Of a stretch of 64,000 bases of DNA, positions 1 to 64,000 are shown piece by piece. The DNA comes from Amoebophrya sp. A120. Taxonomy: Eukaryota; Protista; Dinoflagellata. The position numbers were made by a program, and so were the translations under genes. The stretch is from positions 1,992,778 to 2,056,777 of the forward strand of contig CAJINV010000010.1 in assembly GCA_905178155.1 (NCBI GenBank), in the 5' to 3' direction. The notes beneath the pieces are model-generated. The model was given only the letters and a program-made list of their open reading frames with translations. It was not told where the DNA came from and searched no databases. Position 1 is the stretch's first letter, and each line of letters begins with the position of its first letter.

Positions 1-3000
1 GAGTCTCCATGCGAAAGCCCGCCTCCCTATCGCGGCGTGCTGCATGATTGTGATCATTTGCAAAAGGCCGCGGGCGGGCTCTAATATTCTAGACGAGAAA
101 AATCCGCAGCCAAGTTCCCCGCAAATTCTGCACGGGTTCGGCAACCCGGACCCTAGGACCCCCGCTTTCGGAGTAACGTCCAGATTTTCCTCGTCCCCAC
201 GACTGGACAACCGTGGCAAGCTGGCGGCGGAAACAAAGGACCCCTCCCCTTTGGACCGGAGCTTGCGACCTGCATCTTCCTCCTGATCTCCTTCTACAGA
301 ACTCGTGGTTATTTTCGAAGACGTGGTGGCCGCGGCGGCGGCGGGTGCGCTAGTTCTACTAGTTGCAGTAGCAATTCTACCATTACCATTGCTAGTACAA
401 AAACACAGCTCCAAATGCCTCGACCACAGAACGCTGGCGAGGAATTCAAAATTCACATCCCGGTTCTCGTCAATCATCTCATCGTCTACTTCCGCTGATC
501 TTCTTGTCGTTCCGCCATTTGAAATCAGCGGATTTGTCATGTCGCCCTCCAAGTAGACAAACACGTTCGAAGTGACCGGGCTTTCCACGCAAGGCAGATG
601 CAAACTCAATGCGTTCTTCTTGATCCTGTGCCGCCTCGGGAGGGTATGACAGTGCACAACTCCGCCTCCCCCTCATTTATGTTGTGTGAACAGCAACACA
701 AGCGCTGGCAAAGATAAAGCTTTTGCATGACCAATTCCGTACAGGATTGTAGTGCTGTTTTGGATCATTGCGGAATCTGTCATGCAAACGGTACTAACTG
801 GCAAAGGGTGGATTTGGAATTTTGCATGACAAACGAGGGGAAGGGGCGGCTGTGCACTTTCATAGAGAGTAGTTCTCCTTCTCGCTCGCGCAGTGTTTCC
901 TGTAGTTCCTCTGCTCTTCAGCGCAGGAGAAGTTTTTGGCGACAGTGGCATGATGATCCCAGGTGAGTTATTGTAGTAGTAGGCTTGTTCCGACGACCAC
1001 GACGTCCATGTACCAATTCCACCTCCCGCAACTGCGCGCATGCTCCGCCTCCCCGCCTGGAGCGCCATGCCGAGACTGTCGAGTTGCAGTCCATCAGAAC
1101 TGCTTGCAGCTGTGGACGGCAAGCTCGTATTGCTACTTTGCGATGCATTTTTGCGCGTCGAACTCGCGGCCATCAAATTTGCACTTTGCACCTTGAGCAC
1201 GGAGAGAAATTCTCGGAAGTAAGTCAACTCCCGGTCCGTCGGGGTGTTCGAAGGCATATTAGCAGTATTGTTTGCTGCGTTAGTCAACANNNNNNNNNNN
1301 NNNNNNNNNNNNNNNNNNNNNNNNNNNNNNNNNNNNNNNNNNNNNNNNNNNNNNNNNNNNNNNNNNNNNNNNNNNNNNNNNNNNNNNNNTTTTTCCTTGC
1401 GATGTTGCACCTGGTGCACTACCCCCGCCAGCAGTTCCCGAAGTTGTGGTATGCAGTGCAAATGCAAAAGCATCGTACTCGTATGAATGCATTACAAATT
1501 TCCTCAGCATGAGAAAGGAAATTTGCTATGCGGATTTGACTTAACAAGAAAATTTGTAATGCATGATTGCAATACGAGTACGATACTTTTGCACAGGATA
1601 TGTGGAGGACATCGAGTGTGCGTTCTGCTGCTCCAACAGCACGTGGAAATGTATCCGCAAAAAAAGACCCGTCGCCATCCAATTTGTCATGCAAAACACG
1701 CATCGAAAGCCACGTTTGTCATGCAAAAAATGGATAGGGATCATGATGGGTGTTTTTTCCTGGATAGAATGGAAAATGGACTCCGGCCAAAGGTTGAGCG
1801 CGTAGCAGTGCCGTGCCATTATGCATTGCAGAAGCATCGCACTAGTTCTAGTAAAAATTGCATTACAAATTTTTCGAGAATGAAAAGTGCAATTTGTAAT
1901 GCGGCTTCGGGTAAACTAGGCGCTTTGTCATGCAGTGTTGCAATTACTACTAGTACGATACTTTTGCAGTTGATAGCCATGGTGAAGTGACAATGATCCG
2001 CTGTGCGTGACCAGGAGGACATCAATTTCATGGCACTTGCAGAAGCTGGAACATAATTTCTGCTCCCATAGGCGGGGGCCCCGCTCTTATTGTTCTTCCT
2101 CGTGCTGTAGTTATCCCCAGCTTTATTTTTGTCCATGATCACCTGGTGGTGCAAAAAGTCCTCATTGTTCAACAAGGTGTCCAACTGATATCCGCTGGCT
2201 CCACTTGATGTCGTTGTACAGTGTCGCAGCACGAGCGAGTAGCAGCGCAGCGCCAGCTTTTTACAGGTCGCCCGCTGGAACGTGTGTCCGGCGAGGACTA
2301 GAAAAAACGCCTGCTTTCGTTTATGACTTGCTCAAACGTTCTTACAATCTCAAACGTTACAATAGAATTTGGATATCTGTGATGCATGATGAGCATGACA
2401 GACTCGCACAGCGTTTACACCTTTTGCAATACAAACTTCGCCAGATTGTCGTGGGGTTTAGGGCTCCGGATGAACTTGTCATGCGCAATCCCATGAGACT
2501 TGGCTAGATCATGCACTCCTGCATCACAGATTTCCGTATTCTATTGGAGCGTTTGAGATTGTAACACCTGAGCGGGTTATAGCGTTTCCACCCCGCTTTT
2601 CCGAACAGGCTGGCGGCCTGCATGGCGTTCCCAAATGTTACATTTGCAACTGTTACATGATTTGTCATGCAAAATGACCATGACCCCGACCCGCCAGACT
2701 ATCAAGCTGCTTCGCATGACAAATTCCCGGAGGGCTAAATAGCACTGTAATCCGCACCAAACCTGTAATGCAAGACGCGCAAGGGTCCCCCTCTCACCTG
2801 TCCTAGTCTTGCGTTACAAATTCATGTAACAGTTGAGAATGTAACGTTTGAGAACGCCATAGCCTGCTCCAGCAGCAGCCCAGTCTTCAAGCCCTCTTCG
2901 GCGGGCAAGAGGTCGGACGAGCACTTCACGACGAGCTTTGCGGTTTCAAGCAGGAGTTTCCCGGTCTGCGGAGACAGCAGCACACCACCTCCAGCGCTGG

Positions 3001-6000
3001 TAGATGAGGCTCCACCACCCACCTTCGTCGATAATTCAGCTACCTCGAGCACGTACTGCGATTCACAGACCTTCATCAGGTAAAACAGGACCCGGATCGC
3101 CAAATTTACCTTGCCCGCTTTTGAGTAAAAGTCTAAGGCGTTGCGCAAGGACTTTTCCCAGTTCTCCACGTCGTTTGACAGCAGCTGGCAAAGCCCCTGC
3201 ATCTCGTAGCAGCCCGCAACGTGCTTCCAATTGCGATCTTGCTTGAAATCCGCCAGGAGGAGCTTGTAGTAATTGTTCGCGGTTTCGTAGTCGCGCAGGT
3301 GGAAGCACAGGTCCCCGGCCAGCCGCATCTGGCCCTCGGTCGTGTTTAAATTGTAGGTGGCAATCGCCGTCTTCCCATAAGAACTTTGTGAAGCTGCGTT
3401 GCTACTATTCGTTGCTCCTCCTGAAGATGTTGTCCCAGCATTGCTCACACTGCCGGTCGTGATGTATCCCCCACCACTTCCCGTTGTATTCATTTCGGCG
3501 GCAGATCCTCGAACGGCATTCAATACGTCGTCATCGCCTCCAAATGATCCCGTGGTCCCCGCTCCGAGTCTACCACTGCCACCATAGTTAGCAGAATTTC
3601 TGTAGTCCCCCGCCACCGAGCTCTGTTCCTTGGGTTTACGGAATAGGGATTTCATCGTGTTTTGAAACCCTCTCTATGAACTGCAAAAATGTCTGGGTCT
3701 GGAAGAGTCGGGGCTTGTCATGCACATTTTGCATGACCCGTCAGGTCTGTGATGCTGGTGCTATCGTCACAGATTTTTTGAGAGCTTCTTGATGCTAATT
3801 ACGCATTAGAAATGCCCTCTCTGCGTGCAAAGAACTGACTCCTCTTGCTGCTCATGCAACACAGACATTTTTAGACTCCGCAGACAGCATTACAAGTTCC
3901 ACTCTTGCAGGCCCAGACATGTTTGCGATCGATACTCTCCGCGTGCTGCCGATTTGGGCGTCCAGCATGGACTATGGATTGCAAAAATGTCTGGGTCTGG
4001 AAGATTGCAACTTGTGATGCTGTTTTCGGAGGCCAAAAAGATCTGTATTGCATGACCAGCAACAGGACTCCAGTTTGTGTTACGCGGAGAGGGCATTTCT
4101 CATGCGGAATAGGCATTAGGAGGCCCTCTAAAAATCTGTGTTGCTAGATCATGCATTACAGGCATCAGGCGTCATACAAAATATGCATGACAAGTCTGGA
4201 TTTTTCCAGACCCAGACATTTTTACATTTGATATGGCCAGTTTTCGCTCCACCCACGGAATGGCGAGCTGCTGCACGAAATTCTTTACCACCTGCTGCAG
4301 CTCGTTGCAATCCGCTATGGTCAGGCTCGCGAGGAATGATGTGGACGAGGAGCTCTGGTGCGACGTTTGGCTCCCATCAACTACACTGGTCGTGGTCACT
4401 GCTCGTCCCCCTGGAGGAGGACCTCCTCCTGGAGTACCTGTAGTTCCCGACGCGGCCGGCGATAATTTCTTCCGAGGTCCTGACGCCTGGTGGATGCCCA
4501 CCTTTTCGAAAAACTTAGCCACACCAAAGTTTTCATCCACCATTGATGAAGATGATGTAGAACTGGTGGTGGAGGCAGTAGAAGACACTCCCGCACTGTT
4601 TAACAGCGAGTTTTTCCGGTTTAGACGGAGTGCATATGGCAGTGCACAACTCCCCCTCCCCCTCATTTGTGATGCAAAACTCCAAATCCAGGTGCTGCCT
4701 TGTGGCACTGTTTGCATGACAGATTCCGAAAGCCCACATAGTACTACATTCCTGTGGCTGTGCAAATTTGTCATGCAAAACCAGTACTCTTGCTGACGCT
4801 TGTATTGCGGTTCATGGTTTACAAATGAGGGGGACGAGGGGGAGTTGTGCACTCTCATAGGACAGCAACCGACGACGGGTTGAAAACGGATTTCATCTGG
4901 TTCTGATATCCTGGGCAAAAGCACTTCTGGTAGAAATCGTTTCATTTCGAATTGCAATCTTGCAAGACAAACCCATGTTGTCTACTTTTTACCTGCCAAA
5001 ATTTGACGCCCCCCTCTCTGTAGTGCTAGTGTTCCTGCCTGAAAATAAAATTGAAATTTATCAAGCATTGAACTTGCTAAATGTACACAGCCCGAGATGT
5101 TGACTTTTGCAACGCATATCAGAACCTGCTCCACGATTTCCATTTTCGGGGACTCTGGGTCGCTCATATGAACTGCAAAAGTATCGCATTCGTATGAATG
5201 CATTACAAATTTCTTCAGCATGAGAAATAAAATTTGTAATGCGAATTTACCTCAAGAAAAAGATTTGTAATGCATGATTTTTGCAATTATACGAGCACGA
5301 TACTTTTGCACAGGATAGCTCATATCGTGCAGCAAAATTTTCAACCGTGGCGGGTTGGCCTCCAACACGCCCTTATGCATTGCAAAAGCATCGTACTAGT
5401 ATAAATTGCATCACAAATTTTGGCAAGAAGAAAAGTGGAATTTGTAATGCTGTTTTACCTTAGGAAGGAGATTTCTCATGCATGTTTGCAATTAGTACGA
5501 CTACGATACTTTTGCACAGGATAGCCCTTCCGGCAGAGCAGCGGGTTGGTGTTCAGGTGCAAAATCTGCTGGAACGTATGGAAGCGTCAGGATTGAAATC
5601 GTCAAAGTTGAAACAAATACTTTGTGATGCATAAAATGCAACCCGCAAAGCGCCTGTCTTGCAGAGTAGGCAAGGGAGGCATATTGCAAGCCTGTTGAAA
5701 GGTAGAAATAGAGCTGCTAAAGTAGCATGACAAAAGGCGTCTTCCTTACACAAACAGCATTACAAACTGGAAGGATTGAGGCACCACCAAAACTTGTCAT
5801 GCGCCTTTTGAAAACTGGGCTCCAACTGGCATCCATTTTATGCATGACAAACTATTTCAACTCTGACGATTTCAAACCTGACACATCCATAGAACGTCGC
5901 AATTACGTCGGGCTCTTTGCTGGACACGCAAAAAAACGTGCCGAACGGCTGGTGGACGCACTCGTGTTCCTGGTACCGGTACTGTTTTTTCAGCACCAGG

Positions 6001-7894
6001 CTGCGGTAGCTTTCCCACCAGGGCTGGGAAAAAAGGTGAGGTGGAGGTGCCGGCGCGGTTCGTGTTGCCACAACTGTAGAAGGACTACTTCTGGAGCTGG
6101 ACGAGGAAGAAGATTTCGTAGTTCTTTGTGGTATATCAAATGTAAAAATGTCTGGGTCTGGAAGAATGCATGTTTGTCATGCTTGTCTGGCATGACTCTT
6201 AAATCTGTCATGCAAGTTACCCAAGAGCTCCACCTTTCTGTGATGCAGAAACGCGTTTTGTCATGCAGAATAGGCAACACCTAGAAGCTCAGAACCTTGT
6301 GATGCTGAGCCAGCATTTCTGGCCTCATCATGAGACGCCACCCAGCATCACAAGTTTCCAGACCCAGACATTTTTACATTTGATATGGTACTACTCCTTG
6401 CGACTGCATCTGCTCCAGCGATATCAACTGTAAAAATGTCTGGGTCTGGAAGAGTGTTAAACTTGTCATGCAGGTTTTCCATGACCCATGAGGTCTAGAA
6501 TGCGGGACCTAGCATGACAGAGTCTGCGAGTTGTCCGCTATGCCTATCCTGCATGAGAAACTCCCTCCCAACTTGGTCGAAAGTGGACAGCTTTTGGCCC
6601 TCATGCAACACAGATTTTCGCATTATTCGGATTCAGCATGACAAGCTGCAATCTTCCAGACCCAGACACTTTTGCAATCCATAAGCGACCCCGAGTGCAG
6701 GAGCTGCTGGTCGTGGCCGCAGTTGTAGTCGTACAGCGCATATCCTGTGCAAAAGTATCGTACTCGTACTAATGCCAATCTTGCATGACAAACCTGCCTT
6801 TTTGCCTGAATTAGCATTACAAATTCCATTCTTCTTTCTGATAAAATTTGTAATGCAATTTATACTAGTTCTTAACTTTTGCAATGCATAGCGCACAACT
6901 CTTCTCCATCTCCGAAAGCGTTTCTTCGCGGAAGGGTGTCCGCGTAGCCTCGTCCACGGCTTGGTGCGCGAGGGCGGGAAGTATCGCGAGGAAAAAAAGC
7001 TGCCTCAGTCTCAATTTGTAATGCGGAAACCTCTTCATGTCATGCAAGAAATGCATCGCGTGCTACTTAGTCTGACGCATCGCAGGTTTTTTATGTGTCA
7101 ACATGCTGGCCGAATTTGCGTTGCTGATGAATGATCTGCAAAAGTTTTGAGACTCCTGAGACAGCTTTTTATCCTCGATACAGAGGTCGTTCCGGTTAGC
7201 GTCGACGTCCGCATGGTCCAGGAAAGACACCCGGAACTGTGAGTTTTGAAACACGTTTTCCGTGCAAAAGTATCGCACTCGTATACGTATTATGCAGTCA
7301 TGCACATGCATTACAACTCTTACTCTTTTTCTTAAGGTACATCCGCATTACAAATTCCATTTCTCACGCTGAGGAAATTTGTAATGCATTCATACGAATA
7401 CGATACTTTTGCAATTCATAACACGCCCCTTTCGGCGATGGAGTAAGAAACTGGGATGTTCGCCACGTAGCCCCCAAAGGGCGAAAAAAGCTCGGCGAGC
7501 GTGAGGCCGTTGGTTCTGGAAACGGTTTCCGTCGCAGTTTATGCATCGCAAATATGTCTGGCTCTGGAAGGATGCGAACTTGTGATGCTCATTTCACAAA
7601 ACAGACAAATCTCTCACGCAGAGGCAGCAAAAGATGCCCATTTCATGTCACCAAAATGAGAGATTTGTCATGCGGATACTTAGGCAATGCGAAAGATTAA
7701 GATTCTCGAAATCTGTGATGCTAGCGCTTCCAAGACAGACCTTGTGTCATGCAAAAACACCATGACATACGACGCACTCTTCCAGACCCAGACATATTTG
7801 CATTTGATACAGTTTCCGTTCCGACCACCAACACTTCGGGAACCAGAATCTCTGTATGGATCCAATCCGGAAAAGAAGCTGGCGAGCTTAGCAT
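1..7894 (-). CDS. TRAPPC8: TRAPP III subunit TRAPPC8/Trs85 (multi-exon, 3' end probably beyond window start, spans N gap)
   Basis: Manually spliced exons give TRAPPC8-like segments: VVGTETATETVSRTNGLTLAELFSPF; PWWESYRSLVLK..HECVHQPFGTFFCVSS; LTIADCNELQQVVKNFVQQLAIPWVERKLAMLDAQIGSTRRGFQNTMKSLF; EGQMRLAGDLCFHLRDYETANNYYKLLLADFKQD. 19 TIR introns. Start ATG at 7894 is a best guess. Confidence 0.85.
645..864. mobile_element. TIR introner family D
   Basis: TATGACAGTGCACAAC...GTGCACTTTCATA; DR GAGGG/GAGAG. Confidence 0.8.
1290..1389. other. Assembly gap (100 N)
   Basis: Run of N. Confidence 1.
1450..1600. mobile_element. TIR introner family B
   Basis: DR TGTGG. Confidence 0.9.
1652..1766. mobile_element. 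TIR introner family I
   Basis: DR AAATG/GAATG. Confidence 0.8.
1820..1975. mobile_element. TIR introner family B
   Basis: DR GCCAT. Confidence 0.9.
2322..2581. mobile_element. TIR introner family E
   Basis: TATGACTTGCTCAAACG...GAGCGGGTTATA; DR TCGTT/GCGTT. Confidence 0.85.
2621..2861. mobile_element. TIR introner family F
   Basis: CATGGCGTTCCCAAATGTTAC...GTTTGAGAACGCCATA; DR GCCTG. Confidence 0.9.
3675..3934. mobile_element. TIR introner family A
   Basis: DR CTCTC; frame restored. Confidence 0.9.
3973..4233. mobile_element. TIR introner family A (opposite orientation to 3675)
   Basis: DR TGGAC/TGGCC; frame restored. Confidence 0.9.
4635..4859. mobile_element. TIR introner family D
   Basis: DR GTGCA/GGACA (degenerate). 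Confidence 0.8.
4907..5118. mobile_element. Degenerate TIR introner, family B-like
   Basis: TATCCTGGGCAAAAG...CTTTTGCAACGCATA; DR TCTGA/TCAGA. Confidence 0.7.
5167..5317. mobile_element. TIR introner family B
   Basis: DR GCTCA. Confidence 0.9.
5374..5523. mobile_element. TIR introner family B
   Basis: DR GCCCT. Confidence 0.9.
5577..5891. mobile_element. TIR introner family J
   Basis: DR GAACG. Confidence 0.9.
6134..6385. mobile_element. TIR introner family A
   Basis: DR TGGTA; near-identical to 22704-22955. Confidence 0.92.
6422..6683. mobile_element. TIR introner family A
   Basis: DR AGCGA. Confidence 0.9.
6741..6890. mobile_element. TIR introner family B
   Basis: DR GCGCA. Confidence 0.9.
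6982..7180. mobile_element. TIR introner, singleton family
   Basis: TATCGCGAGGAAAAAAAGCTG...CAGCTTTTTATCCTCGATA; DR decayed. Confidence 0.7.
7256..7420. mobile_element. TIR introner family B (left terminus mutated)
   Basis: DR ACACG. Confidence 0.85.
7540..7809. mobile_element. TIR introner family A
   Basis: DR CAGTT; removal gives GTETATETVSRTNGLTLAELF. Confidence 0.92.
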
Positions 7895-9510: not shown

Positions 9511-10608
9511 TCAGCAGGGAATTTTACTCGCATGGTCCGACCAGGGCGCCGCGAAACGGGGTGTATCCTCGTCCAAAAAGACTCGTCCGTCCGGAATAGC
9601 AATACCTTTTTTTTCTTTCTGACGTTTTCCTTGTTCAGAACGTGACTCAAATGAGTCCGTAAACGCATTCGAGACTGTGCCCAAAACATATATGAGGCAT
9701 TCAATCTCGGCAATTTTTTCCTGCGTCTTCTTCCCGTTCTCGTCGTACCTTGCGAGAAAAGGAGCGCCTTCCCAGCTCATTAGGTGGAGGTGCTCCGCGA
9801 CATTCTTCACCTGCTGCGGTAGCGTGCCCGTGGCACGGCGGAACAGTTCGTCGTAAACTGCAAAAATTTCTACAACACCGATCCACAATTTGTGACCAGG
9901 ACGCAGCGAGGACGAGAAGCGAGAAGTGCCCAACAACGTCATCCCAATGCGAAGCGAGAAGTTTCCCAACATCTTCCCAACTGTGGCCGCCAATGTTTCA
10001 GCGTACCACGCGCGAAGCTGTTCAGCTTCACTAGGAAACGAAGTTTTGGGAGAGAGAGCGTTACTTAGGCCGGCGTTTATAGCTCGGTCGTGCACCGCCT
10101 TTTCGCCGCCGGCCAAGAACTTTTCGGACTCGCAGGGATTATAATAATCAGCTGAGTACACAAAAACCGACACTATTTTTTCATTGTTGTAGTGCTTCAC
10201 CGTGAAATCCGTCACGCTGACGTACGTTGAGGCGTGAATCTTCCAGCTCGGCGTGCCCTGGCCGGCGTAAGAGAAGTCGGCGACGAACCAGGTGTAGAGG
10301 CCGTCGTTTTCCCAGACGTTCTTCGGGTAGATGTTCGTTCCCGAAAACATCCGAAAGCGAACAATACCAGCACCAGGTCCATCACGTTTAGCGCCATACA
10401 GCACTTGCTTAAAATGTTCTTGTGTCGCAGGGTTCTTCGCCAAGATCTGGTTGCTATACGTACGCGGTTTTATACCAGCAATGAGCTTCTTCGCTGCTCC
10501 CCGATTCTGTGCGTGTTCCAGCTCTTCGATTCGCGGCAACGCTTGTCCGTTCAGCAGGCTTTTCAACTCTTCATTGTGATACTTCAACTCTTCATAGTGA
10601 TGCTTCAA
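9511..10608 (-). CDS. Hypothetical protein, 365 aa uninterrupted ORF (may have upstream exons)
   Basis: Long open frame with N-terminal heptad repeat (HYEELKY/HNEELK); no family recognised. Confidence 0.45.
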   Translation of the reverse strand: MKHHYEELKYHNEELKSLLNGQALPRIEELEHAQNRGAAKKLIAGIKPRTYSNQILAKNPATQEHFKQVLYGAKRDGPGAGIVRFRMFSGTNIYPKNVWENDGLYTWFVADFSYAGQGTPSWKIHASTYVSVTDFTVKHYNNEKIVSVFVYSADYYNPCESEKFLAGGEKAVHDRAINAGLSNALSPKTSFPSEAEQLRAWYAETLAATVGKMLGNFSLRIGMTLLGTSRFSSSLRPGHKLWIGVVEIFAVYDELFRRATGTLPQQVKNVAEHLHLMSWEGAPFLARYDENGKKTQEKIAEIECLIYVLGTVSNAFTDSFESRSEQGKRQKEKKGIAIPDGRVFLDEDTPRFAAPWSDHASKIPC

Positions 10609-10623
10609 CTCTTCATTGTGATG
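10561..10623. repeat. 3 x 21-bp tandem repeat
   Basis: TTCAACTCTTCA(T/A)..GTGAT repeated three times; encodes heptads on minus strand. Confidence 0.85.
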
Positions 10624-11614
10624 CAGTGATTTATCCAGCGCGAAAGGCGATCATGCATCCTCATACGTTACAGAATCACGGGTAGCATGTACAAGTACAT
10701 CTACATTTGCATAGAGCCAGATTCTCCACCACTTCCGGTTCCACTCGTAAAAAAAAAAAGTCGACACATATTTTGCTCGACGCATCTAGTACTTGCAAAA
10801 TGCATATGCATTTCATGAAAAGGCGCTAGTACTATGAGCAGGAGCACTAGATGAAACAGCTCTGGCATGATCTATTTTTACGAGTACAAGGATTCTATTC
10901 ATCTACAGAATCTGTGCCAGGACGATTTTGCCTTTTTCAATACTTACAGTAAACGCAAGTGGATTCTGTACTTTTTGTATAGCGGAAGCAGGCGTTTCGC
11001 GATGCTGCATAAGCTCGATGACAATTTTCTTCATAATCCTGAGGAACGACTTTTCCTGGTATTACAACTACTGGCATTTGGTTTTTCGCCTGCAGCCCTT
11101 CCTCCAACTTTGTGCCGGCTCCAGACCCGCTACTTTTGTCCGAGTGTTCCAGCTCTTCAATTCGCAACTTTTGATCGACCAACTGTCTAAAGCACTCTTC
11201 ATTAGCACGCAGTCATTTATCCAGCGCGAAAGGCGATCATGCATCCTCATACGTTACACTTACAGAATCACGGGTAGCATGTACAAGTACATGATCTACA
11301 TTTGCATAGAGCCAGATTCTCCACCACTTCCGGTTCCACTCGTAAAAAAAAAAGTCGACACATATTTTGCTCGACGCATCTAGTACTTGCAAAATGCATA
11401 TGCATTTCATGAAATAAAGGCGCTAGTACTATGAGCAGGAGCACTAGATGAAACAGCTCTGGCATGATCTATTTTTACGAAGTACAAGGATTCTATTCAT
11501 CTGCAGAATCTGTGCCAGGACGATTTTGCCTTTTTCAATACTTACAGTAAACGCAAGTGGATTCTGTACTTTTTGTATAGCGGAAGCAGGCGTTTCGCGA
11601 TGCTGCATAAGCTC
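10623..11614. repeat. ~400-bp near-identical direct duplication (about 10623-11016 and 11209-11614)
   Basis: Both copies run GCAGT.ATTTATCCAGCGCGAAAGG...GATGCTGCATAAGCTC with small indels. Confidence 0.9.
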
Positions 11615-52413: not shown

Positions 52414-54158
52414 CTTCTTGATCTATGTTTGTTTCTGTCGGTGAGTATGAGGTAGACGGTGAATTATTTGTTCGCGTTTTTCTATGGTTTGTTGTTGTTC
52501 TCCTAAACTAATTTTTTTTTTCAGAGTGGACGTCGTGATGTAACAATGCTCTGATTTTCTTTTTCATTTTCGATCTGTTCAAGCAGATTGCTAAAACAGT
52601 AGTACCCGCCTTTTCGGCGTAGTTGGTACGGCGGGTGGTTGCCTAGTAACTACTCAAGTTCATCTCTATAACTACTTCTATAAAGTGCATCAGAATCAAT
52701 TTCATCATGTTCATTACAGAATCTCATGTGAAAAGCGAACTTCGGAAAGAGGTTGTTCAGAACTCACGTTAAACAGGGTAGTCGTGGGTATGTTCTAGGC
52801 TAATGTCGGCGCACTACTACAACTTAGAAGATCATCTTATCGTGTTTCGCTTGTTGATGGGCCGCTGCAAAGTCAAACTCAAACTTGCTGTCAAGTGGCA
52901 TACCTGTAATATCGTCACACCGTAGCTCCTACTGCTGATAGGCAATTGGAAAGTGAATACTTATTACGCGTGCCTCTCGGCCAGGATCAGGAACTTCGTC
53001 GAGTCATTTATCATTCTCAAACATGACACCAGACGTTTTCTGTGGCCGTGCTGTCAGGAGGTTCATCTTCGTCTTTTCGTGCAAAGATCACAGGAACACA
53101 TCAAAGAAGGCCAATCTACAACAGAGGTAGAGAATGGCTCGATGCGGCTCTGCGTGGATATGCGCAACCGTCTGTGGTTGTTTGTGGCACCGAAGTTGCA
53201 ACGAAATACAGTGAAGCGCGAAGACTCTACTTGTTGTTGTAAGTCTGTTAGTATTCCTACGCTGGTAACTGTTCATTGTAAAAACACTATCGACGAATAG
53301 TGTCATTTGATCAACGGTAGAATAGTTTACAATGAGTTCGATACGATGCATTTTGTGATGCTCTAGAAGTACTAACCTCAGCTAGGCCTCCTGGTCTAAA
53401 AGGTTTGTCCTGTAGTCTCTGAAGAGGTACTTGATATTAAACCGCGTCAACCTGCGAATCTGGCAATAGAGGCGGGCAATCTGTAGTTCATAACCGACTG
53501 AGCTGAAACTCCGCTAGGAAACAATAGCGATCGCTAGATTTGTTCGTAGAAGGCTTAGCTGGTCTATGTTGTATACGTTTTTGATGTTGTGTTAGCACAG
53601 TCTGGTACTAACCTCGTAAGTAGGTTTATTGAAACATATAGATAAATTGCTTTTCATCTGATTCCTACATTCTGACACAATTTAACTGTTGTAAATTCTG
53701 AATCGACAATGATGTATCTCGAGTCTGCTGATCTGCTGTAATCTGCTCTGCGTAAACTATAAGGTAAAATCTGGTATAATGACACAGTTCGTTCATAAAA
53801 CTATTGCTTGCTCTCTCAGCCTCGCTACTGCGATGAGGCTGAGGGTGAGGGCTGCTATCTGAGGTAAGAGTTTATTAGGTTTCTCTTGGTCTGTTGCTGT
53901 TGTTCAGTGTAAGTTTTAGTCTAAAATTGGATTTGTCAAATTCTGAGAAGCACACTAGCATAACATATAATTGTTTTTCGATAAATTACAGGTCTGATAA
54001 AGAGAAACTGTTTATACGTTACAGTTACTGTCTCCGCGTTAAAAACCTGATCTGCCGGTCTGATGCTGTAAACGTATCGAGTTTGGTGTTTCTGTTTCAT
54101 TGATAGTGCTGTTCTGGTCGTGAACGGTTTGTGATGCAAGAAACGCATTTCTTGCCCT

Positions 54159-57100
54159 TCACTTCCGCGTGTTATTCATCCGGGCCTTCTGCTGCTCCAA
54201 GCTCATGGAAGCACCCTTCGGAGCGCGCGAGTTGCTGTTTTTTTGTTTACGGTAGATTTTCATTGTTGCACCACACATTCGGATCGATGTTGAAGTACCG
54301 AATCGCAATCGGCCTGGTGGTCATGCACACGGTCGTGCATAAAAACAAGTAAAACATGGGCGAACTGCGTTACTGCACGTTACGCATGACAAACTACGCT
54401 ATACCGTGTGCTGAATCCGGCCCGGGAAGACGTGTCGCTGAAGTTATCCGGCACATCTGGACCCAGAAGCTGTGCAGCGGAAGCGCCAACTGAGTTATTT
54501 TCATGGTTTTGTAGTTTTAATTCATACCATGGCTATAGCAACTTATGCCGAGGATGACAAACGCGATCACAGAACAAGCTGCAATCTGCTGCATGATCGA
54601 AAGAGTTGATGTCACTACTACAAGAAGGAGCTATTCTATACGAAATCAATGACATTATTCACCTGCGCTCTGCGGTGCCATGGTGTGGTTCTCAATGGCC
54701 TTCCAGATGTTCTTCATGCGCACCTCGCGGCCCCAGGAGTCGGTGAGCAATTTTTTCTCGAAGTCCTTTGCGGCCTGCTCATTCTTCGTCTGGACGAGCT
54801 GTGATAAGGTTTTGCATCACGATCACAGATTTTTGTCTTATTAAAAACTGAAATTCATCATCTTGATCTTCACATAGCAGTAATGCATCACGCAACACGT
54901 CGCAGATGCGAATCATGCATCATAAGCTCGTCACAGAGGCAGATGGGATGCGAATTATGCATCACAAAATAAGTAAATTTCTATACCACTTCGTTCTTGT
55001 TCGCGACTATCTGCGAGTACTCCAGTTCCCGCTCCTTATTCCTCTCCAAGGTCTTCAATGCGTTCATTGTCCTCACTTGCAGGGTATGCATTTTTACACA
55101 CATCGATTTGGATCTCCAGAATATGTCTTGACTGACCAGCAACTACAGTGTGTGGTCCACCTCCCTTGTGATGCAATCATGCGCACTACGCACGAGTAGA
55201 CAAAAGCGTAGTTGTTCTACAGACTTCTCATGTCGACTCAACAGTAATAAATGATCACTCGTCTTCAACATTGAGCATCAAAAATTTTCTCCGTCCTGAC
55301 CCAGGTCGATATTTGCAATGGATACAGGGACAGATCGTCACGGTACTTCCCGGCACGCTCCTTCATAAGCTGATGTGGTTGACAGTTTATTTTCATATTT
55401 CATTGATTGAACAAGATGCAAAACCTCGCATGACGAAGTTTCGGCGTGGGTTGATGTTTTTACCATGAACAATAGCAAAAAAGAACATGACCCCAATCTT
55501 GTTCTATCATAGCCTATACTGCTCTCAATCCCGCGTCATCGGGTTCGGTGAACTGCGGAAATTCGTGCGCGCTAGCCCCGTGGATCCAGTTTTGGCGGTC
55601 ATGACCCCGCTTCACGCGGTTCCACTCCATTTGTTGCTGGATAAAATCCTGGTTTTCCGCGGCCAGCGCTCGCTTGCGGTCCATGTCGTCACGCTCCTGT
55701 TTCAGACACCTGTCCAAGTGCTCTTCCCACTGCCGTCGGTCCTGATTTTTCGTTTAGCAGGAGTTGCATTACAAATCCTTTTGCTAAGGTAAAAAAATCC
55801 GCATTAGAAATTTTATTTCTCATGCTGAGAAAGTTTCAGTTTGTAAATGCATTTATACGAGTACGATACTTTTGCAGTTCATAAGAACTTCTATACCGCA
55901 ATAGCTTCGCTCGCCCTGATCTCCATCTCGGTCAAATATCGGTCCATCGCCTCCCTGTGCGCTTTTTCCTGTTTCACCGTTGGTCCCTTGTATTTTGCTA
56001 TGCATTGCAAATATGTCTGGGTCTGGAAGCTTGTGTTGCTGAGATTTGCATTGCAGACTGGCTGCTTGTACGGCATAACAGCATGAGAAGTTTTCCTCAG
56101 CTTATTGCGGATTCACTCGAGTTTAAGAGCATTACAAACTCCCATGCTGGATGATCCAGCACGACAAAAAAGGTGGCCAATTGATGTATAAATGCATAAC
56201 AGATTTTCTTGCCCTTCAGATCTGGCATCACAAATCCAGAACCAGACATTTTTGCATTTGATATTTGCCGGGTCGTACAGACTGTGCTCCGACACCTGCG
56301 ACAAGTCTGACTCCGCGTAGCCGTAGTCTGCCTCGTTGTAGACGTCAGACGCCGGTAATTGGATCGGGGCGCTTCCTTGTGGTGCCTGCATCTCGCTGGG
56401 TGATGGCCCGGCGAAGGGGATGTGTTCGGACTCCGCCTCGAGCGCTTCTCTCTCCTTTATGCATTGCAAATATGTAGTCTGGGTCTGGAAACTTGTGATG
56501 CAAATCTACGAATTGTGGGCGCACTGCAATATGGAGCCCAGCATGACAAGTTTCTGCGCTGCTGCGTGTTTTGTTCTTCGCATGACAAACTGCGCTTTTG
56601 CATGACAGGCAAGAGGCCCTTTTCCTACTCATGCATCACAGATTCAAGAGTCATGCCAGACAAGCATGACAAACTTGCATTCTACTTCCAGATTGAGACA
56701 TATTTGCAGCATTTGATATCCTTTATCAAACCCGCACCCGCCTCGGGGACCGATTCGAGGTTGGACTGGTCTCGCACTTTCGTTCCCTTCAGTCGGAGCT
56801 TCAGCGCCTCTGCTGAGGGTGCCTGGAAGGTTCTGCTCGGTGCGTAGGATGAGACGGCGTGGGCGGACTCTGCCGGAGCGGCGAGACCTGTAATAAAGAG
56901 AGATTTTCTTGATATTTGTGTGTTAACTACATGCAAAACGTATCAATACATGAGCATGACCACGTCCACGCTACCTAATGGTGCTCGTCACAACATCAGA
57001 CAGAAGAGATCGCAAGTTGTCCTCACCCAACATACATCATGGTGAAATAAAACATTAGCATCATCTAAATGTTGATAGTACCTTCCTTTGCGTACAGTTC

Positions 57101-58267
57101 GGACTTGAAGACAAAACCCGTTTTTCTCTCCAGAGAATGGAACTTGCCGTGCTCAAAGTCGATTTCCACCTTCTTCCCGGTTGCAACCGCCTCCCCGATT
57201 GCCTGGATGATGTTATCCAGGAAAAAAAGATTGTTAGTGAGAGTTTGTGATGCAGCGCAAGAACACGTAAGGCGGAGGTTGTGTCTGTCATGCTGGACAT
57301 GCATTACAGGACCCATTCAAGCGAGTTTTGTCATGCTATCTGCGCATGACAAGTATCTGCTCTCGTGCCAGACAGATTTGTAATGCTGTTCCGCCAATCT
57401 AAGTTTACACCTACAATCTTTTTTTCTTGGATAGATGTACCGCAGGCCGCAGTAGACGTTGTCCTTGTTCAGACAGTTCGAAAACTTTATCGCAAGAAAA
57501 TAGAACTGTTTCACATTCACTGTGATGATTTTGCCAGGTCTGCATCACAAGTTTGCCACACATGCACAGAAAATTTGCCATGCGCGCCCCCCATCATCAA
57601 GGGAAAACACGACTAAAAATCCGACGTAGTTTTGCGCCAGGTGTAGCACTAGCAAGACAAACACTGTCTATGCTTCATTCTCTGCATCTTCACAAGTTCA
57701 CAATGAAAAAGATTCTTCTTGCGATAAACTTGATTGCCGCTTTACTGAAGTTGAACTCCTCGTACGCGCACTGGTCTTTTTCGTCGATCTTAGACGCGGA
57801 TTTTTTGTTGTCCACCGCGAAGGTCTGGATGAAGCTCTCCGCGAGTTGGAAAAAGGGTCTCAGTTTCACGCCGTTCTTCGTTCTCTCCTTGTAATACCCA
57901 ATTTTGCAGAAATTGGTGATGTTGAGCCCCTTCTTCTGGTCCAAGCAAAAGGCGATGTACCTGATAAAGTCGGATTTGAAATTTGCGTGATTCAATAATC
58001 TCAATTGCATCTTGATCTTGTCTTGCAAGACATACATTGTAATACGATGTCCCGCATTGGGATTGGCACTCGCACTCTTGGTGCTGTCGCTGTGCATGAC
58101 AATGAACCAGCAGACTCTAAAAACATATCATTATCATACCTGTTCACGCAGTCCCATATTTCCAGGTACTCTCCGGATGGGTGGGGAAAGTTGTTGACGT
58201 CTTTTAGCAATCTCCCACGCTTCTTGACGACGTCTTCCAGGCAGTCTATCAATTTGTAGACCGACAT
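54159..58267 (-). CDS. CCDC81: CCDC81-like protein (HU-like domains plus coiled coil), 13 exons
   Basis: IWDCVNRYIAFCLDQKKGLNITNFCKI..LRPFFQLAESF..EEFNFSKAAIKFSNCLNKD..IIQAIGEAVATGKKVEIDFEHGKF; 5 TIR introns and 7 GT-AG introns. Confidence 0.75.
54235..54404 (-). other. Canonical GT-AG intron (CCDC81)
   Basis: CG|GTATAG...AAACAG|C joins to STRNSRAP. Confidence 0.6.
54490..54662 (-). other. Canonical GT-AG intron (CCDC81)
   Basis: G|GTGAAT...ACTCAG|TT joins to SAVGAS. Confidence 0.6.
54799..54986 (-). other. Canonical GT-AG intron (CCDC81) carrying GCATCAC motifs
   Basis: GTG|GTATAG...TCACAG|CTC joins to NEVLVQ. Confidence 0.7.
55085..55324. mobile_element. Degenerate TIR introner, family A-like
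   Basis: DR CAGGG; frame restored DLSLQVRTM. Confidence 0.75.
55370..55519 (-). other. Canonical GT-AG intron (CCDC81)
   Basis: GCA|GTATAG...CATCAG|CTT joins to RALMKER. Confidence 0.7.
55742..55896 (-). other. GT-AG intron containing a one-armed family B introner
   Basis: GCG|GTATAG...AATCAG|GAC; intact TIR ends at 55883, other TIR absent. Confidence 0.7.
55999..56263. mobile_element. TIR introner family A
   Basis: DR TTTGC. Confidence 0.88.
56458..56718. mobile_element. TIR introner family A
   Basis: DR TCCTT. Confidence 0.88.
56888..57081 (-). other. Canonical GT-AG intron (CCDC81)
   Basis: G|GTACTA...TACAG|GT joins to KEGLA. Confidence 0.75.
57214..57433. mobile_element. TIR introner, singleton family
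   Basis: TATCCAGGAAAAAAAGATTGT...ACAATCTTTTTTTCTTGGATA; DR GATGT. Confidence 0.88.
57488..57726. mobile_element. TIR introner family H
   Basis: DR AACTT. Confidence 0.88.
57961..58139 (-). other. Canonical GT-AG intron (CCDC81 intron 1)
   Basis: AG|GTATGA...ATCAG|GTAC joins to VNRYI. Confidence 0.8.
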
Positions 58268-59117: not shown

Positions 59118-59267
59118 TATGCTGTGCAAAAGTATCGTACTAGTATAAATTGCATTACAAATTCACTTAGCATTACAAATTAAATTTGTAATGCGGATTT
59201 GCCTTAAAAGAGAGATTTGTAATGCATAACCGCAATCAGTACGAGTACGATACTTTTGCAGTTCATA
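59118..59267. mobile_element. TIR introner family B in ABCC 3' UTR
   Basis: DR TCTTT; just downstream of stop codon at 59276. Confidence 0.9.
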
Positions 59268-59275
59268 TCTTTGTC

Positions 59276-62200
59276 TTACTCCCCTCCCCCCATCGTCCCA
59301 GCCGCGTCTGCTTCTCGCATCAACATCGCTAACCGCGAATTGCTGTTACTGCCACTCGGCCTTGTTCCGTGATCGTTCCCCGACCCTACAGCTTCCCGTG
59401 GTCCCAACAACTCCGCCGGCGTGCCACTCTCGACCAATTTCCCGTCGTGGAAGATCAGCACCTTGTCGAACTGCCGCACGAAATGCAAGCGGTGCATGAT
59501 CCACAACACGGTTGTTTCCTTTTATCCTGAGCAAAAACGTTCCCACCCCAGATTCAACATGGGGATCTCGCAACAGAAATCGAGAAGTGTTGGGAGTCAA
59601 GCATGACAAGTTCCTGTCTGTATTGTAGGGCAGTTTAGCAAGTACAGCCGCAACACAAATCCATCTATTCATCCTGTTTACAGCATGACAAAGTCCAAAA
59701 CACGATTGGAAAAGGAAATGCCTCTCATGGGGATGCGCATTACAACTCTTCCTGTAACTGCAAATCTGCATGACAACTATGGGGTGGGGATGTTTTTACT
59801 CAGGATACCTTTCCCAATTTGTTCAGGATCACGTCGTGGATTTTCTCCTCTATCCCACGGAGAAACTTTTTCACTGTGATGAATTTCATTTTGCAAGATC
59901 TGCATCACAAGTTTGATACATATGATACTGAAAATTTGTCATGCGGATTTCCGAGGGGAAAACACACTTAAAAATCCAATGTCTTGCAGGTGTAGCAAGA
60001 CAAATAGTTCTGTGATCCATTTTCTGCATCACAAGTTCACAGTCAAACAGCTTCTTCTTGCGATATCGTCCGACTTCAAATCGATGTTCGCGGTCGCCTC
60101 GTCGCACAGCAGTAACTCCGGATCGTCGATCAAAGCCCGGGCCACCGCGAAGAGCTGCTTTTTATCAGCTGCAAAAGTGTCGGGGTCAGGAAGAGTCGAG
60201 CTTGTCATGCATATTTTGCATGACCCGTGAGGTCTGTCATGCTTGTGGTAGCATCACAGATTTTTTGAGAACTTCTTGATGCTAATTACGCAAGAGAAAT
60301 GCCCTCTCCGCGTGCCAAGAGCTGACTCCTCTTACTGCTCATGCAACGCGGATATTTTTAGAATTCGCAGACTGCATTACAAGTTCCACTCTTCCAGACC
60401 CAGACATATTTGCACTCCATACTTTTCCCCCACGGAAAAATCGTCGTTAAATTCCGAATCGAGTTGGTAAGGGAGGGACTGAACTCTTTGTTTCAAATTC
60501 ACTATGTCCAGAATCCGCCAGATTTTACTGTCGTACGAATTGGTGTCAGAAGCTACAGCTGCTACTCGTGCACCGAGCGGACTTACTGAAGATGTTGTTG
60601 TAGCCTCTGTTGCACCACCAGCGCCTTTAGAAGTCGCGGACCTTAAATTTTCCCGAATCGTCCCGCTGATCAGATTTGAGTCCTGACTCACCATCCGGAA
60701 CATTTTTTTTCGCCACAGTAACGGATTCGTCTCCGCTAAGCTCAAATTTCCGATCAGAATTTCCGACCCGGGTTGGGATTTGTACAAGCCCGATAAAGCG
60801 TTAAACAAGCTCGACTTTCCCGAGCCACTTCTCCCGATGATCGCCACTTTTTCGCCCTTCTGGATCTGAAAATTCACGTTTTCCAGAACCGGGTTCTTGT
60901 GCAACCGGTACCGGAAGGACAGATTCCGCACCTCCAACGCAACAGCTTCGGGTAATATCGAAGAAGCCCTCCGACGCGTCATTTTCTGACTGGAAGCGGG
61001 GGATTTGGAATTTCTACCACGGGTACTAGATGGTAGTTCATATTGCTGGGAGGTCCTCGTCGTCGTTTCTTTGCTAGGATGACCAAGGGAAGAACTCGCT
61101 CGGCTGATGGAGCGAGATTGGGAAGGAGGTGTTGATTGAGAATTTTTCGAGGAGGAAGAAGCGGAAACGTAGTCGGAGTTGGTCGCGCTGTTCAGCGATT
61201 GCTTTGTCCGGCTTGGTTCTGTTGTAACAAGCATGGGCGAGATGGATATCCCGAGAAAAAACTGCTTCACTTTGATGAGCATTTTGCAAGATCTGCATCA
61301 CAAGTTGTTACACATGACACTGAAAATCTGTCATGCGCGCTTTCCAAAGGAAAACACGCTTGAAAATCCAATGCCTTTCTGCAGATATCGCAACACAAGT
61401 GGTTCTGCGTTAAATTTTCTGCATCACAAGTTCACAGTGAAACACTTTTTTTCTTGCGATAATGGAGCAGGAAGAATCAATCTCCACCTCCTCGAAGCTC
61501 TTGTAGTTCTCCAGATCGGGGGAGATCGGGTGAGTCATGTCGTTGGAAACAACTTCAACCAACTCCTGATCCTGGCCCATTGCGAGGTTGTTGTTCTCAG
61601 GCGAAAATGAGGATGCATCCTGTAGTAGTCCGGCCGCGCCGGCCCGAGGACTGATTTTCCTACCATCCACCACGAGTGTTGGAGTGGTTGTCGTGCCGAG
61701 GTCGTCCTGGTCTCCAACTACATCTTCGCCCATTTGTAGTACCTCTTCTTCATGACTCAGCCCTTTAGAAGTATTCCAGTGCCCGTCCACCTCTACCGGC
61801 AAGCGGCAATACTCCGCGCACCGCTCCACGGAGACAAAATTCTGCTCCATTGTGGTCAATCCCATGCAGTAGTCCATCATCGCGCGTTGTAGAATTCCCG
61901 CGTAGAGTATCCTGGTGGAAGAAACGCCCTTCCCCATCCATCTTTTGCATGACAAACACTGCTTTTGGTGCATGTTTTGCATGACAAATTGGATGGGGAT
62001 GGGTGCTTTAGTTTTTTCCTGGATATAGAGCAACACCAACCCGAAGTCTGCGGCTTTGAAAGTCCAGGCACCAGTATCAAAAGGAAAAATCCCCCCTCCC
62101 CATATTGAAAAGGTATGTTGCCGAAAATTTGTGTTGCTGATTTGAGGTCACAAATCGTCTCTGTGTTGCATGAAGGCAACTCCACAAGCTCCGCCGCATC

Positions 62201-64000
62201 CTACAGGCGGTTTGTCATGCTGTTTTAGCTATAGCGTAGATGTCTGTCATGCTAAGCGCCTAGGCCAAAATTTGTCTACTCAGGCTTAGTATCATGGGCC
62301 TGCAGTCCTCGTCAGCAAGACAAATCTGATCTGTGTGCGCAAATCCAGCATCAGAAACTTCGTTTGGATATGGGGAGGGGGGATTTTTCATTCTGATAAC
62401 CAGATTGATGACCTCCACTCGAGTCGTTATTTCTCTGGAAGTAGAACAGCGAGCACCCGCAGAGCCCCGTCATCAGGTAAATCACGCAACCCCACATGGT
62501 GGTGAAGGACTGCGCCCACTTGCAGATCGCCTCGTTCCAGTATTTCCCCTTCGCCATCAGGGTGACTTTCTCAAGATTCGCCCGACAGAACGCCTCTTCT
62601 TTTTGAAAAGCCTGGATGGTTTCCAAGCCCTTCAAGCAATCTACGTACTCGGAGTAGACCGGAGAATGCGCGACGGACTCGATTCTTCGTGTGTCGCGAG
62701 CGGGGGACCGGATCTTCTTGAAGATAAACAGGTAGGGGACAGGGTATGAAGTTGCAGAGAGTGCACATGATGATCATCTCTCCCTCGTCTTGATGTTCCT
62801 CCGCATTTATGATCAACATCCATCGAAACCGCAGTTCCACTCGTTGCCTTTTGGATAACTTGGCACTTCTTGCATTACAGATTTCTCCAGGCGAAACAGT
62901 ACATACTACAAATTTGTGACGCAGGAGAGGCTGCACTTTTGCTGCCGCTATTCAGTTCTTGTTGCCAACTTCATACAAATGCGTGGGAGAGCAGGCACAA
63001 GGACGACGAGTTGTGCACTACAACCAAACATCTCATACAACCAAAACCGGGAAGAGCACTAGCACCAGCGGGCAGTAGGTGAAGATCAGGATCAACTGCG
63101 TCAGCATGGTCATGGTGTTCTGGACCTGCTGCGTCAAAATCTGCGGCACGAAGTTGTCAATGTTTTGCACGTCCTGAAGGAAGCGGTTCAAAATCCTCCC
63201 TGTGGGCGTGATGTCGAAGAAGTTCAGCGGGGCTTTTAGAAGCGAATTCAGCATCTTGTCGTGCATGAACACCGACGCCCGGAGGCTGCAAATGGTGAGG
63301 GCGAGGGTCTGGGTCGCCGCGATGATAGACCCGGTAAAATTGATCAGGATGTAGATTAACAAGTACTCGAGTTGGTTGTTCACTGAAAGATCGGTGGTGG
63401 CGCCGGTCTCAATAGGAGATAATCTTCGCTGATCCAGCACGCTAGAAGGCGTGATCTCCGTCACTTCAGTTTCCGTCGCAGGAACATCATTGCCCAGAGG
63501 GTCTTTGAAGAGGGCAGAGCTGAAATCAAAATCCCAGAAGAAGTGGCCCCCGGCAACTACCGCGGCTGCACCAATGCGTGCAGGAGAAGCTAGGTGCTCA
63601 TCACTGTTGAAAGTGTTAGTCATCGCCAGATCTTCCGCTGCTCCGACTTCTCTGTTTGTCCCGAGGACAACTTTAACCTTGTTCGAGTTGGCCCAAAAGG
63701 TCAAGAAGATGTTCGCTGCGACAGAGGACAACGCGGATAAGACCAGCAGGACGAAGAGAAAAAAGTTCGTCAGTTTCGTGCCGAAAGCGGACAAGTAAAA
63801 CTTCAAGTCCTGAACCGGGATCGAACCGGAAAACCGGGTTTCCTCCTCACTCCCGAGGAGTAAATGGTTCACCCGCTGAATCAACCGGGAAGACACCCTG
63901 TGCCCGTCCATGGTTTGCAGTATCGAGGTGATTTGCTCCACGCATTCGGAGAGGAAAACTTTGTGCCTTTCCGCGTTTTGCTGCAGCTCGCGAGTGTGCA
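59276..64000 (-). CDS. ABCC (MRP-type) ABC transporter, C-terminal half (TMD2 + NBD2), 5' partial
   Basis: FFDITPTGRILNRF, ESVAHSPVYS..LKGLETIQAF, EQNFVSVERCAEY, Walker A GRSGSGKSS, spliced signature FSVGEKQLFAVARAL, LLLCDEATANID. Confidence 0.93.
59523..59807. mobile_element. TIR introner family G
   Basis: DR CCTTT. Confidence 0.9.
59851..60065. mobile_element. TIR introner family H
   Basis: DR TCCTC/TCGTC. Confidence 0.88.
60163..60421. mobile_element. TIR introner family A, inside the ABC signature
   Basis: DR CTTTT; removal gives FSVGEKQLF. Confidence 0.92.
61247..61461. mobile_element. TIR introner family H
   Basis: DR ATGGA. Confidence 0.9.
61908..62025. mobile_element. TIR introner family I (opposite orientation to 1652)
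   Basis: DR TAGAG. Confidence 0.9.
62075..62398. mobile_element. TIR introner family C
   Basis: DR ACCAG. Confidence 0.9.
62745..63037. mobile_element. Degenerate TIR introner, family D-like
   Basis: TATGA...TCATA ends; removal plus 5 nt gives VLVVPYLFIFKK. Confidence 0.7.

Follow-up and report, generated by a model that had tools for sequence, protein, structure and literature searches.

We analysed a 64-kb window of Amoebophrya sp. A120 (contig CAJINV010000010.1, positions 1,992,778 to 2,056,777; coordinates below count from its first letter). Its many short, transposon-like introns share one internal motif, GCAT(G/T/C)ACA(A/G), across families whose interiors cannot be aligned. These elements are the published Amoebophrya-type introners. 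They also fit the description of miniature inverted-repeat transposable elements, being short and non-coding, with terminal inverted repeats (TIRs), a target duplication and many copies. We think it probable that the motif, as GCA(T/A)BACARR, is the double-stranded DNA binding site of one trans-acting protein that mobilises all of them. We observed shared ends, a 5-bp duplication, motif enrichment, preferred site spacings, skipping of each element plus 5 nt, and, at one unambiguous joint, a 1+4 cut (1 nt ahead of the element, 4 nt behind it). Strand symmetry, spacing and branch-specific constraint are indirect signs that would fit double-stranded binding. Elements with sister motifs and nested inserts may further point to sequence-specific DNA recognition.

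One motif recurs across introner families

The strict motif occurred 205 times in the window, 103 times on the plus strand and 102 on the minus strand. Simulated sequences (20 per model) held a mean of 3.9 copies under an order-1 Markov model (maximum 8) and 8.2 under an order-3 model (maximum 16). Position 5 almost never carried A, with three instances of GCATAACAN against the 205 strict copies. A weight matrix gave the fuller consensus GCA(T/A)BACARRYY, whose sites reached 24.1 per kb in element interiors versus 0.07 per kb (1 in 14.5 kb) in element-poor DNA.

Elements were also sought without reference to the motif, by TAT...ATA ends, TIRs and a 5-bp duplication. This search returned 61 elements (13.5 kb), all with at least one strict copy and together holding 175 of the 205; on one simulated control sequence it returned three. 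Adding 11 decayed or long elements by hand gave 72 elements (16.5 kb) with 193 strict copies, leaving 12 in the other 47.4 kb. A first-pass annotation of this DNA, which had proposed the motif as a common cis-signal, had called it rare outside the elements, and these counts agree; the motif is not equally frequent outside them. That annotation had also held that all families carry several copies. Every one of the 61 elements had at least one, but six had a single strict copy, and two TAT...ATA elements found by hand had none.

Two strict copies 34 bp apart, without a TIR, lay in a canonical GT-AG intron (26978-27116, minus strand). This intron showed no similarity to any of the 628 elements described below and is possibly a relic. 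Separately, short tandem repeats at 17800-17880 contained three strict copies outside TIR elements.

The 61 elements measured 115-324 bp. Across their 122 ends, positions 1-3 read T in 121, A in 119 and T in 121. A run of A followed at positions 11-14, with A in 100, 104 and 115 ends at positions 11-13. The introner signature of TAT, seven variable bases and at least three A was thus present, together with a direct repeat at the exon-intron boundary and removal outside the GT-AG rule. A perfect 5-bp target duplication flanked 46 of the 61 elements, and none had one of 4, 6, 7 or 8 bp. The TIR itself resembled the motif in only three of 15 multi-copy families (A, B and K; family letters are our own and independent of the A-L of the first-pass annotation).

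Metagenome contigs searched with a three-site pattern yielded at least 151 stretches, and 145 of 146 loci came from one assembly. Among the matches listed, these loci added 567 elements of the same families, 628 with the 61 of the window. Because the three-site pattern describes family A, the sample is biased toward that family; families reached up to 227 sampled copies. A matrix site was present in 615 of the 628 elements (13 lacked one) and in 586 of the 588 belonging to 15 multi-copy clusters. With motifs masked, BLAST found no link between multi-copy clusters, so the families are not alignable descendants of one another, though their ends and duplication length are common. The families had earlier been called unrelated. 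This describes their interiors, and no end-to-end alignment emerged, but the TAT...ATA ends, the A-run and the 5-bp duplication are common to all.

Viral contigs gave no match to the three-site pattern. A two-site pattern gave 120; where at least four copies were present, the stretches inspected proved to be coding or tandem repeats that lack the TAT...ATA ends. Three matches in prokaryote genomes were not element-like. One metagenome locus (L182) was rejected as an element, being a tandem repeat instead.

Sites are set at preferred distances

Using one representative for each of the 15 families, direct pairs at 31-33 bp numbered 18 against a null mean of 2.2 (0 of 1000), and inverted pairs at 40-42 bp numbered seven against 1.9 (3 of 1000). 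A set of 73 representatives outside family A, which are not independent of one another, gave 55 direct pairs at 31-33 bp against 8.5, 26 divergent pairs at 39-42 bp against 4.3, and 17 divergent pairs at 8-9 bp against 3.2 (each 0 of 1000 shuffles). In the same set, convergent pairs at 41-43 bp were marginal (38 of 1000), and direct pairs at 52-55 bp, or five helical turns, were not enriched (541 of 1000). Of 34 back-to-back pairs, 28 were separated by a spacer of 8 nt. The first outward-pointing sites clustered 39-41 and 47-50 bp from the element end. We claim only discrete preferred spacings, and read 31-33 bp as about three turns of the helix.

Two elements cited in the first-pass annotation illustrate the arrays, and both had been described exactly. 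The A-family element 22277-22426 has sites at offsets 34 and 52 (forward) and 68 and 99 (reverse), with direct distances of 18 and 31 bp and a convergent distance of 42 bp between first G positions. The element 61908-62025 has two forward copies.

The motif is constrained more on internal branches than on tips

In each of the 12 multi-copy families compared within the window, identity was higher in the core motif than in the interior or the TIR, a comparison conditioned on a perfect reference site. In trees of 534 elements in nine groups, the ratio of core to background substitution was 0.19 on internal and 0.44 on terminal branches. Between nearest neighbours, core divergence ranged from 0.014 to 0.040 and levelled near 0.035-0.04, while the background rose from 0.03 to 0.28. 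The core rate was doubled (0.065 versus 0.033) in 26 copies with at least two duplication mismatches. Such branch ratios and such a core plateau would be expected if an element can multiply only with intact sites, and if these sites decay once it has inserted.

Sister motifs and inserts within the motif

Two further elements, one for each sister motif, combined the same ends with other internal arrays. The first, L195:8103-8623, has TAT...ATA ends, a perfect 5-bp duplication and no GCAT motif, and carries 12 copies of CGATAAC (the CGATAACA array, CG-ATAACA); it lies in what reads as a canonical intron, not an exon. The second, L189:1736-2499, also has TAT...ATA ends and matches at 4/5 positions of its duplication. 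Its subterminal parts hold arrays of AGATGA(CA) (AGATGACA, AG-ATGACA), and it is nested in an A-family element.

Three related inserts with a common 3' end (L122:6584-7838, L141:3862-4492 and L180:1561-2313) were nested in three host elements. All three sit between bases 1 and 2 of a motif copy, one of these copies being a one-mismatch variant, and are flanked by duplications of 21, 13 and 18 bp, respectively. Their end signature matched only these three places in the loci and window, with their 628 elements. No reverse transcriptase was seen, and the three loci gave no Rfam match. From their placement, these inserts are likely to be a site-specific retroposon that targets the motif.

RNA-like contigs skip each element with five further nucleotides

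Deleting each element with one copy of its duplication restored long reading frames, for example of 519 codons (8 elements) and 1148 codons (9 elements). By Pfam, the host genes include those for a photolyase, a TRAPP subunit and two transporters, one of the ZIP and one of the ABC type. One window exon was 100% identical to a public protein that bears the label Amoebophrya sp. A120. Every restored long frame in the window lies on the minus strand, like the co-oriented gene blocks reported for the genus.

Four sets of RNA-like contigs (X1-X4) came from one sample whose RNA origin is only guessed. Among the 15 joints listed out of 24, 12 concerned elements, and every one of these 12 skipped exactly the element and 5 nt. 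The skipped elements were the 11 in the photolyase/cryptochrome gene and 28829-29047 (224 nt). A contig from another run crosses 24057-24210 unskipped. Skipping in one and spanning in the other make removal at the RNA level likely. Contig depth over the elements was very high in sequencing run X5. Raw-read run X9 (100 reads, 99% running on unlike the window) was left out.

One joint free of ambiguous letters, from 23337 to 23507, fixes the cut. The excised stretch, 23338-23506 on the minus strand, comprises in transcript sense 1 nt, the element 23342-23505 and 4 nt. A second joint agrees with this 1+4 placement around TAT...ATA, and two more fit retention of 3 or 4 duplication bases, not 0-2 or 5. 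The intron would then be one free base, TAT...ATA and four free bases, so that the pre-insertion sequence is restored. In 253 elements within long restored frames, the base before TAT was G in 77, A in 68, C in 59 and T in 49. The last four intron bases and the first exon base were likewise free, and the elements did not follow the GT donor and AG acceptor of spliceosomal introns. The public protein P0001 reads through the motif-free 12114-12615 as element plus 5 nt; across the motif-free 13233-13586, retaining 3 or 4 upstream duplication bases fits, and 0-2 or 5 do not. Both read-throughs rest on a public gene model, not on reads.

Two side observations concern duplications and skipped DNA. 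In the duplications of 462 elements, the central base was mismatched less often (18 versus 25-43 at the other four positions; p about 0.006). Intron phase explains this only in part; the base lies second before each cut and could be constrained there, or the edges of the duplications could be imperfect. RNA-like contigs also skip 993 nt at 25572-26564, between two copies of a direct repeat roughly 55 bp long (short side, 30 letters); this stretch is multi-copy in run X5 and is neither a GT-AG intron nor a TAT...ATA element.

A probable binding site for a mobilising protein

Under the explanation that we favour, a transposase or its DNA-binding cofactor would move non-autonomous elements with TAT...ATA ends and 5-bp duplications. 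Several copies of the protein would occupy the three to six sites of an element, which stand at set distances: 31-33 bp for direct pairs, an 8-nt spacer back to back, and about 34-50 bp from each end to the first site. So bound, they might bend the roughly 115-325-bp element and join its ends. Elements with intact sites would be the ones that multiply, and the motif would persist even as interiors and much of the TIR drift apart. After insertion, an element would need only its ends for excision, and its sites would erode. Removal from RNA would be a separate step, likely reading the paired ends and not the motif.

Several results weigh against this explanation. The first-pass annotation had suggested a search for long autonomous elements carrying the motif and a transposase open reading frame (ORF); none appeared in the window or, among the matches listed, in the 146 loci. 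The long elements that were inspected turned out to be members of known families enlarged by nested inserts, or to be unrelated. Transposase and integrase Pfam families matched none of 13 window ORFs and none of 299 locus ORFs (150 and 126 from loci, 23 from inserts; 42 low-complexity ORFs were left out), and PMC7789003 likewise found no transposase in strain A120. Sites fill the entire element instead of its subterminal parts only. General phasing at 10.5 bp was weak, and 25 new groups failed to reproduce it: inverted pairs gave 4 of 300 over 39 groups and 85 of 300 in the new ones, direct pairs gave 127 of 300, and direct pairs outside 30-34 bp had a mean cosine of 0.08. A mild strand bias was present (111 antisense-rich versus 70 sense-rich elements), driven mainly by one cluster. 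When stratified by age, the substitution ratio was 0.54, with a 95% interval of -0.11 to 1.36. Finally, duplication mismatches at codon positions 1, 2 and 3 (19 of 324, 16 of 301 and 35 of 325) give a neutral intronic rate of 0.056 from positions 1 and 2 (35 of 625), and the core tip rate of 0.035 is about 0.6 of it.

In reverse, the motif resembles the ApiAP2 site TGCATGCA; this is a lead, not evidence. A 379-codon ORF without a Pfam match lies at 9511-11640, in a motif-free region, beside two tandem copies of a several-hundred-base stretch. A B-family element with a 2.2-kb insert (L173:476-2934) contains a 415-codon ORF, also without a Pfam match. Nested in another B-family element is a motif-free, 523-bp TIR element with TA...TA ends and an 8-bp duplication (L126:2204-2726), presumably hAT-like. 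The reversed motif also resembles the Sox-Oct element of HoxB1 as given in the accessible part of 10.1101/2022.09.23.509242, again a lead and not evidence.

Alternative explanations

Because the core rate stays below the neutral intronic estimate after insertion, we give some weight to a second, less probable explanation. A host or domesticated protein would bind motif DNA for spreading and then stay bound to aid co-transcriptional excision, polymerase passage or chromatin packaging, such that host selection remains. Besides the tip rate, the terminal ratio persists at 0.44-0.48 even on short branches, and the very old element 23342-23505 (duplication 2/5) still has two perfect sites. The paired sites of the canonical intron 26978-27116 and the location of the CGATAACA element in an apparent canonical intron point the same way, and a DNA-bound mark also predicts strand symmetry. 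Against such continued use, motif-free elements are read through in P0001, and three family members with all sites broken lie in restored frames of 587-1360 codons. Moreover, imperfect duplications made at insertion may inflate the duplication clock, and unsampled transposition history in terminal branches lowers the ratio without host selection.

The other role proposed in the first-pass annotation, that the non-canonical excision machinery recognises the motif on the pre-mRNA to define introns, is improbable. The motif is near-universal in these introns at fixed distances from their ends, antisense sites exceed sense sites (576 versus 479), and U1 small nuclear RNA was undetected in these strains according to the available text of PMC7789003, which calls for another recognition route. 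However, the 253 elements in long restored frames comprised 211 with sites in both orientations, 14 sense-only, 25 antisense-only and three site-less, all apparently removed. One antisense-only element, 21105-21390, is skipped in the RNA-like contigs. Large families insert both ways (35:43 in family A; two clusters show an orientation bias), and the constraint is relaxed on tips. The motif on either strand of the pre-mRNA and the two motif-free elements read through in P0001 make an RNA signal unlikely. Of the two roles once offered for the cis-signal, binding of a trans-acting mobiliser to DNA is therefore favoured over intron definition.

We consider it very improbable, and largely refuted, that motif copies merely form RNA stems that help the intron fold into a hairpin. 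Across the 61 elements, the predicted pairing probability was high for motif bases (0.78 versus 0.63), half of it motif to motif. Complementarity alone would suffice for pairing, which leaves one fixed sequence across unalignable families unexplained. In back-to-back pairs, position 5 was identical in only 8 of 34 and did not co-vary between arms. Of 604 elements with at least two sites, 82 had them in one orientation only, and stems do not explain the direct 31-33-bp spacing.

Scarcely credible is descent from one ancestor with the motif an unselected relic, or one written in by a repeat-generating or nested-insertion process: the TAT ends and 5-bp duplication seen in all families hint at one origin, and a nested insert does duplicate the motif on landing in it, but interiors are unalignable, the core is the best-conserved part in all 12 window families compared, its internal-branch ratio is 0.19, and nested inserts number only three among 628 elements. 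A neutral relic is refuted, and common ancestry of the ends, which is still likely, is compatible with the explanation that we favour.

Relation to known elements and introns

Repeated binding motifs of a similar kind are found in Ac and En/Spm, and in the multi-site ends of Mu or Tn7 with their 5-bp duplications. A precedent is offered by the Lemi1 proteins, which bind subterminal repeated motifs of the Emigrant element (PMC1636448, in the part available). As here, those motifs are short, repeated and in both orientations within non-autonomous elements, and binding there is cooperative. Unlike in Emigrant, the same motif occurs here in about 15 families that differ in their TIRs and cannot be aligned in their interiors; its copies fill whole elements, and these elements are removed precisely from RNA.

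The text available for PMC7789003 describes Amoebophrya introners as non-canonical introns in many (1954) families, with TIRs starting with TAT and an A-run and with short direct repeats, which our elements resemble. It reports variable direct repeats of 3-5 nt and variable splice sites, and rules out general mobilisation by a transposase; here we find a single duplication length (5 bp), a single 1+4 cut and an internal motif common to the families. The motif had no match in the supplement text of that paper, which names no internal motif. As far as this and related literature was available, the spread and the removal of introners are both open questions.

In the accessible portion of PMC12130899, most A120 introner families (58 table rows) are classed as TIR DNA elements of unknown superfamily. 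Family 38, "Ginger, 5-bp TSD [target site duplication], TA/TA termini", is like the elements here. In the largest family, most donor dinucleotides are annotated as GT, CT, AT or TT, in agreement with a cut 1 nt before TAT. Its families spread over several transposon classes and duplication lengths, unlike the single scheme found here. Four spellings of the motif had no match in 12 of its 14 supplementary files, and the accessible text notes no shared internal motif.

Superfamily comparisons draw on the available parts of PMC10045372 and PMC6839031. IS3EU/GingerRoot elements have TA...TA termini, as here, but 6-bp duplications; with 5-bp and no 6-bp duplications, our elements were not filed there. 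The termini fit the TNT...AYA of IS481EU, which has duplications of about 4, 15 or 25 bp; those here are of 5 bp, with none at 4. The TG...CA termini of Ginger1 and Ginger2 (PMC6839031) are not seen, G standing at position 2 in two of 122 ends. Integrase-like transposases, of the DDE type in IS3EU/GingerRoot, would fit TA...TA or TNT...AYA ends; no coding element was seen here.

The nonconventional introns of Euglena (PMC12501133 and PMC11282704, as far as available) also have paired ends, asymmetric cuts outside the paired core, no GT-AG and a transposon-like origin. Their signature, N3CDG...CH'GN5-6|R, differs from N-TAT...ATA-N4 with free N; under the 1+4 cut, intron position 4 is T, the third base of TAT. 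The available descriptions contain no internal motif array.

The elements are thus already published, and the shared motif, the spacing and the 1+4 rule appear new within the literature searched. None of the three was found in the accessible text of PMC7789003, PMC12130899 or PMC11282704 or in literature listings, one of which covered 30 of 220 entries, a scope that leaves outside the logos of PMC7789003 (Fig. 3, S19, S24, S25) and PubMed 36543167, which may bear on the point.

Inventory of the window

The coordinates of the elements are collected in the table. The 17 elements of 645-7809 belong to a minus-strand host gene with a TRAPPC8/Trs85 domain, and the 11 of 19969-24210 lie inside the photolyase/cryptochrome gene, also on the minus strand. 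The region with the nine elements of 28829-35958 takes in the ZIP zinc-transporter gene. Thirteen elements follow at 45196-52215 and seven at 53288-57726. Most of the eight at 59118-62975 are inside the minus-strand ABC-transporter gene.

Table. Elements of the window, with family and number of strict motif copies
Position	Family	Strict copies	Remarks
645-864	E	2	
1450-1600	A	2	
1652-1766	F	2	
1820-1975	A	3	
2322-2581	G	4	
2621-2861	H	3	
3675-3934	B1	3	
3973-4233	B1	3	
4635-4859	E	3	
5167-5317	A	3	
5374-5523	A	2	
5577-5891	I	5	
6134-6385	B2	6	
6422-6683	B2	3	
6741-6890	A	3	
6982-7180	D-like, decayed	1	duplication 2/5; two variant sites also retained
7256-7420	A	3	
7540-7809	B1	3	
12114-12615		0	TAT...ATA; 502 bp; TIR 15/20; duplication 2/5
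13233-13586		0	TAT...ATA; 354 bp; TIR 17/20; duplication 1/5
13705-13996	B2	2	
14069-14218	A	3	
16780-17039	B2	4	
17106-17258	A	1	
19969-20290	C	1	
20527-20794	B1	2	
20855-21010	A	2	
21105-21390	J	4	all four sites antisense relative to pre-mRNA
21428-21695	B1	3	
22277-22426	A	4	sites 22311+, 22329+, 22345-, 22376- (span 22311-22384)
22704-22955	B2	6	
23016-23251	H	3	
23342-23505	A	2	
23711-24003	C	5	
24057-24210	A	3	
28829-29047	D	2	
29094-29249	K	2	
29343-29568	E	3	one end changed
29828-29981	A	1	
30124-30259	A	3	
30797-31060	B2	3	
31390-31651	B1	4	
32792-33006	D	2	
35809-35958	A	2	
45196-45343	K	2	
45994-46215	E	2	
46332-46587	B2	3	
46795-46947	A	1	duplication 3/5
47001-47261	B1	4	
47610-47773	L	2	all sites sense
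47816-47968	A	3	
48408-48620	D	2	
49901-50084	A	2	
50384-50678	J	1	
50765-51019	G	3	
51093-51413	C	2	
51908-52215	I	4	
53288-53797		1	510 bp; duplication 2/5
55085-55324	N	1	
about 55700-55879	A relic	1	one end lost
55999-56263	B-type	2	
56458-56718	B2-type	6	
57214-57433	M	6	
57488-57726	D	1	
59118-59267	A	4	
59523-59807	J	4	
59851-60065	D	3	
60163-60421	B1	4	
61247-61461	D	3	
61908-62025	F	2	both sites antisense
62075-62398	C	2	
62745-62975	E-like, decayed	1	

Implications

A wider picture can be drawn, which as a whole we regard as speculative and rather unlikely. One protein missed by transposase searches, possibly host-domesticated, would read the spaced GCATBACA array, mobilise almost every one of the lineage's tens of thousands of introners, whatever their family, and stay on the DNA to flag hairpin-guided, GT-AG-free 1+4 excision. 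Paralogues of shifted specificity (CG-ATAACA, AG-ATGACA) would run their own lineages, and a site-specific retroposon would use the motif as a safe haven in removed introns.

For the biology of these introners, one motif, a spacing rule, an end chemistry and a cut geometry would collapse their diversity into a single system. The motif would serve as bait for pulling down the mobilising protein and as a filter for the autonomous element. The 1+4 rule would allow exact annotation of non-canonical introns, and points the search for the excision enzyme to the paired ends and not the interior. The system would show a class of transposon able to flood coding exons without cost to protein sequence.

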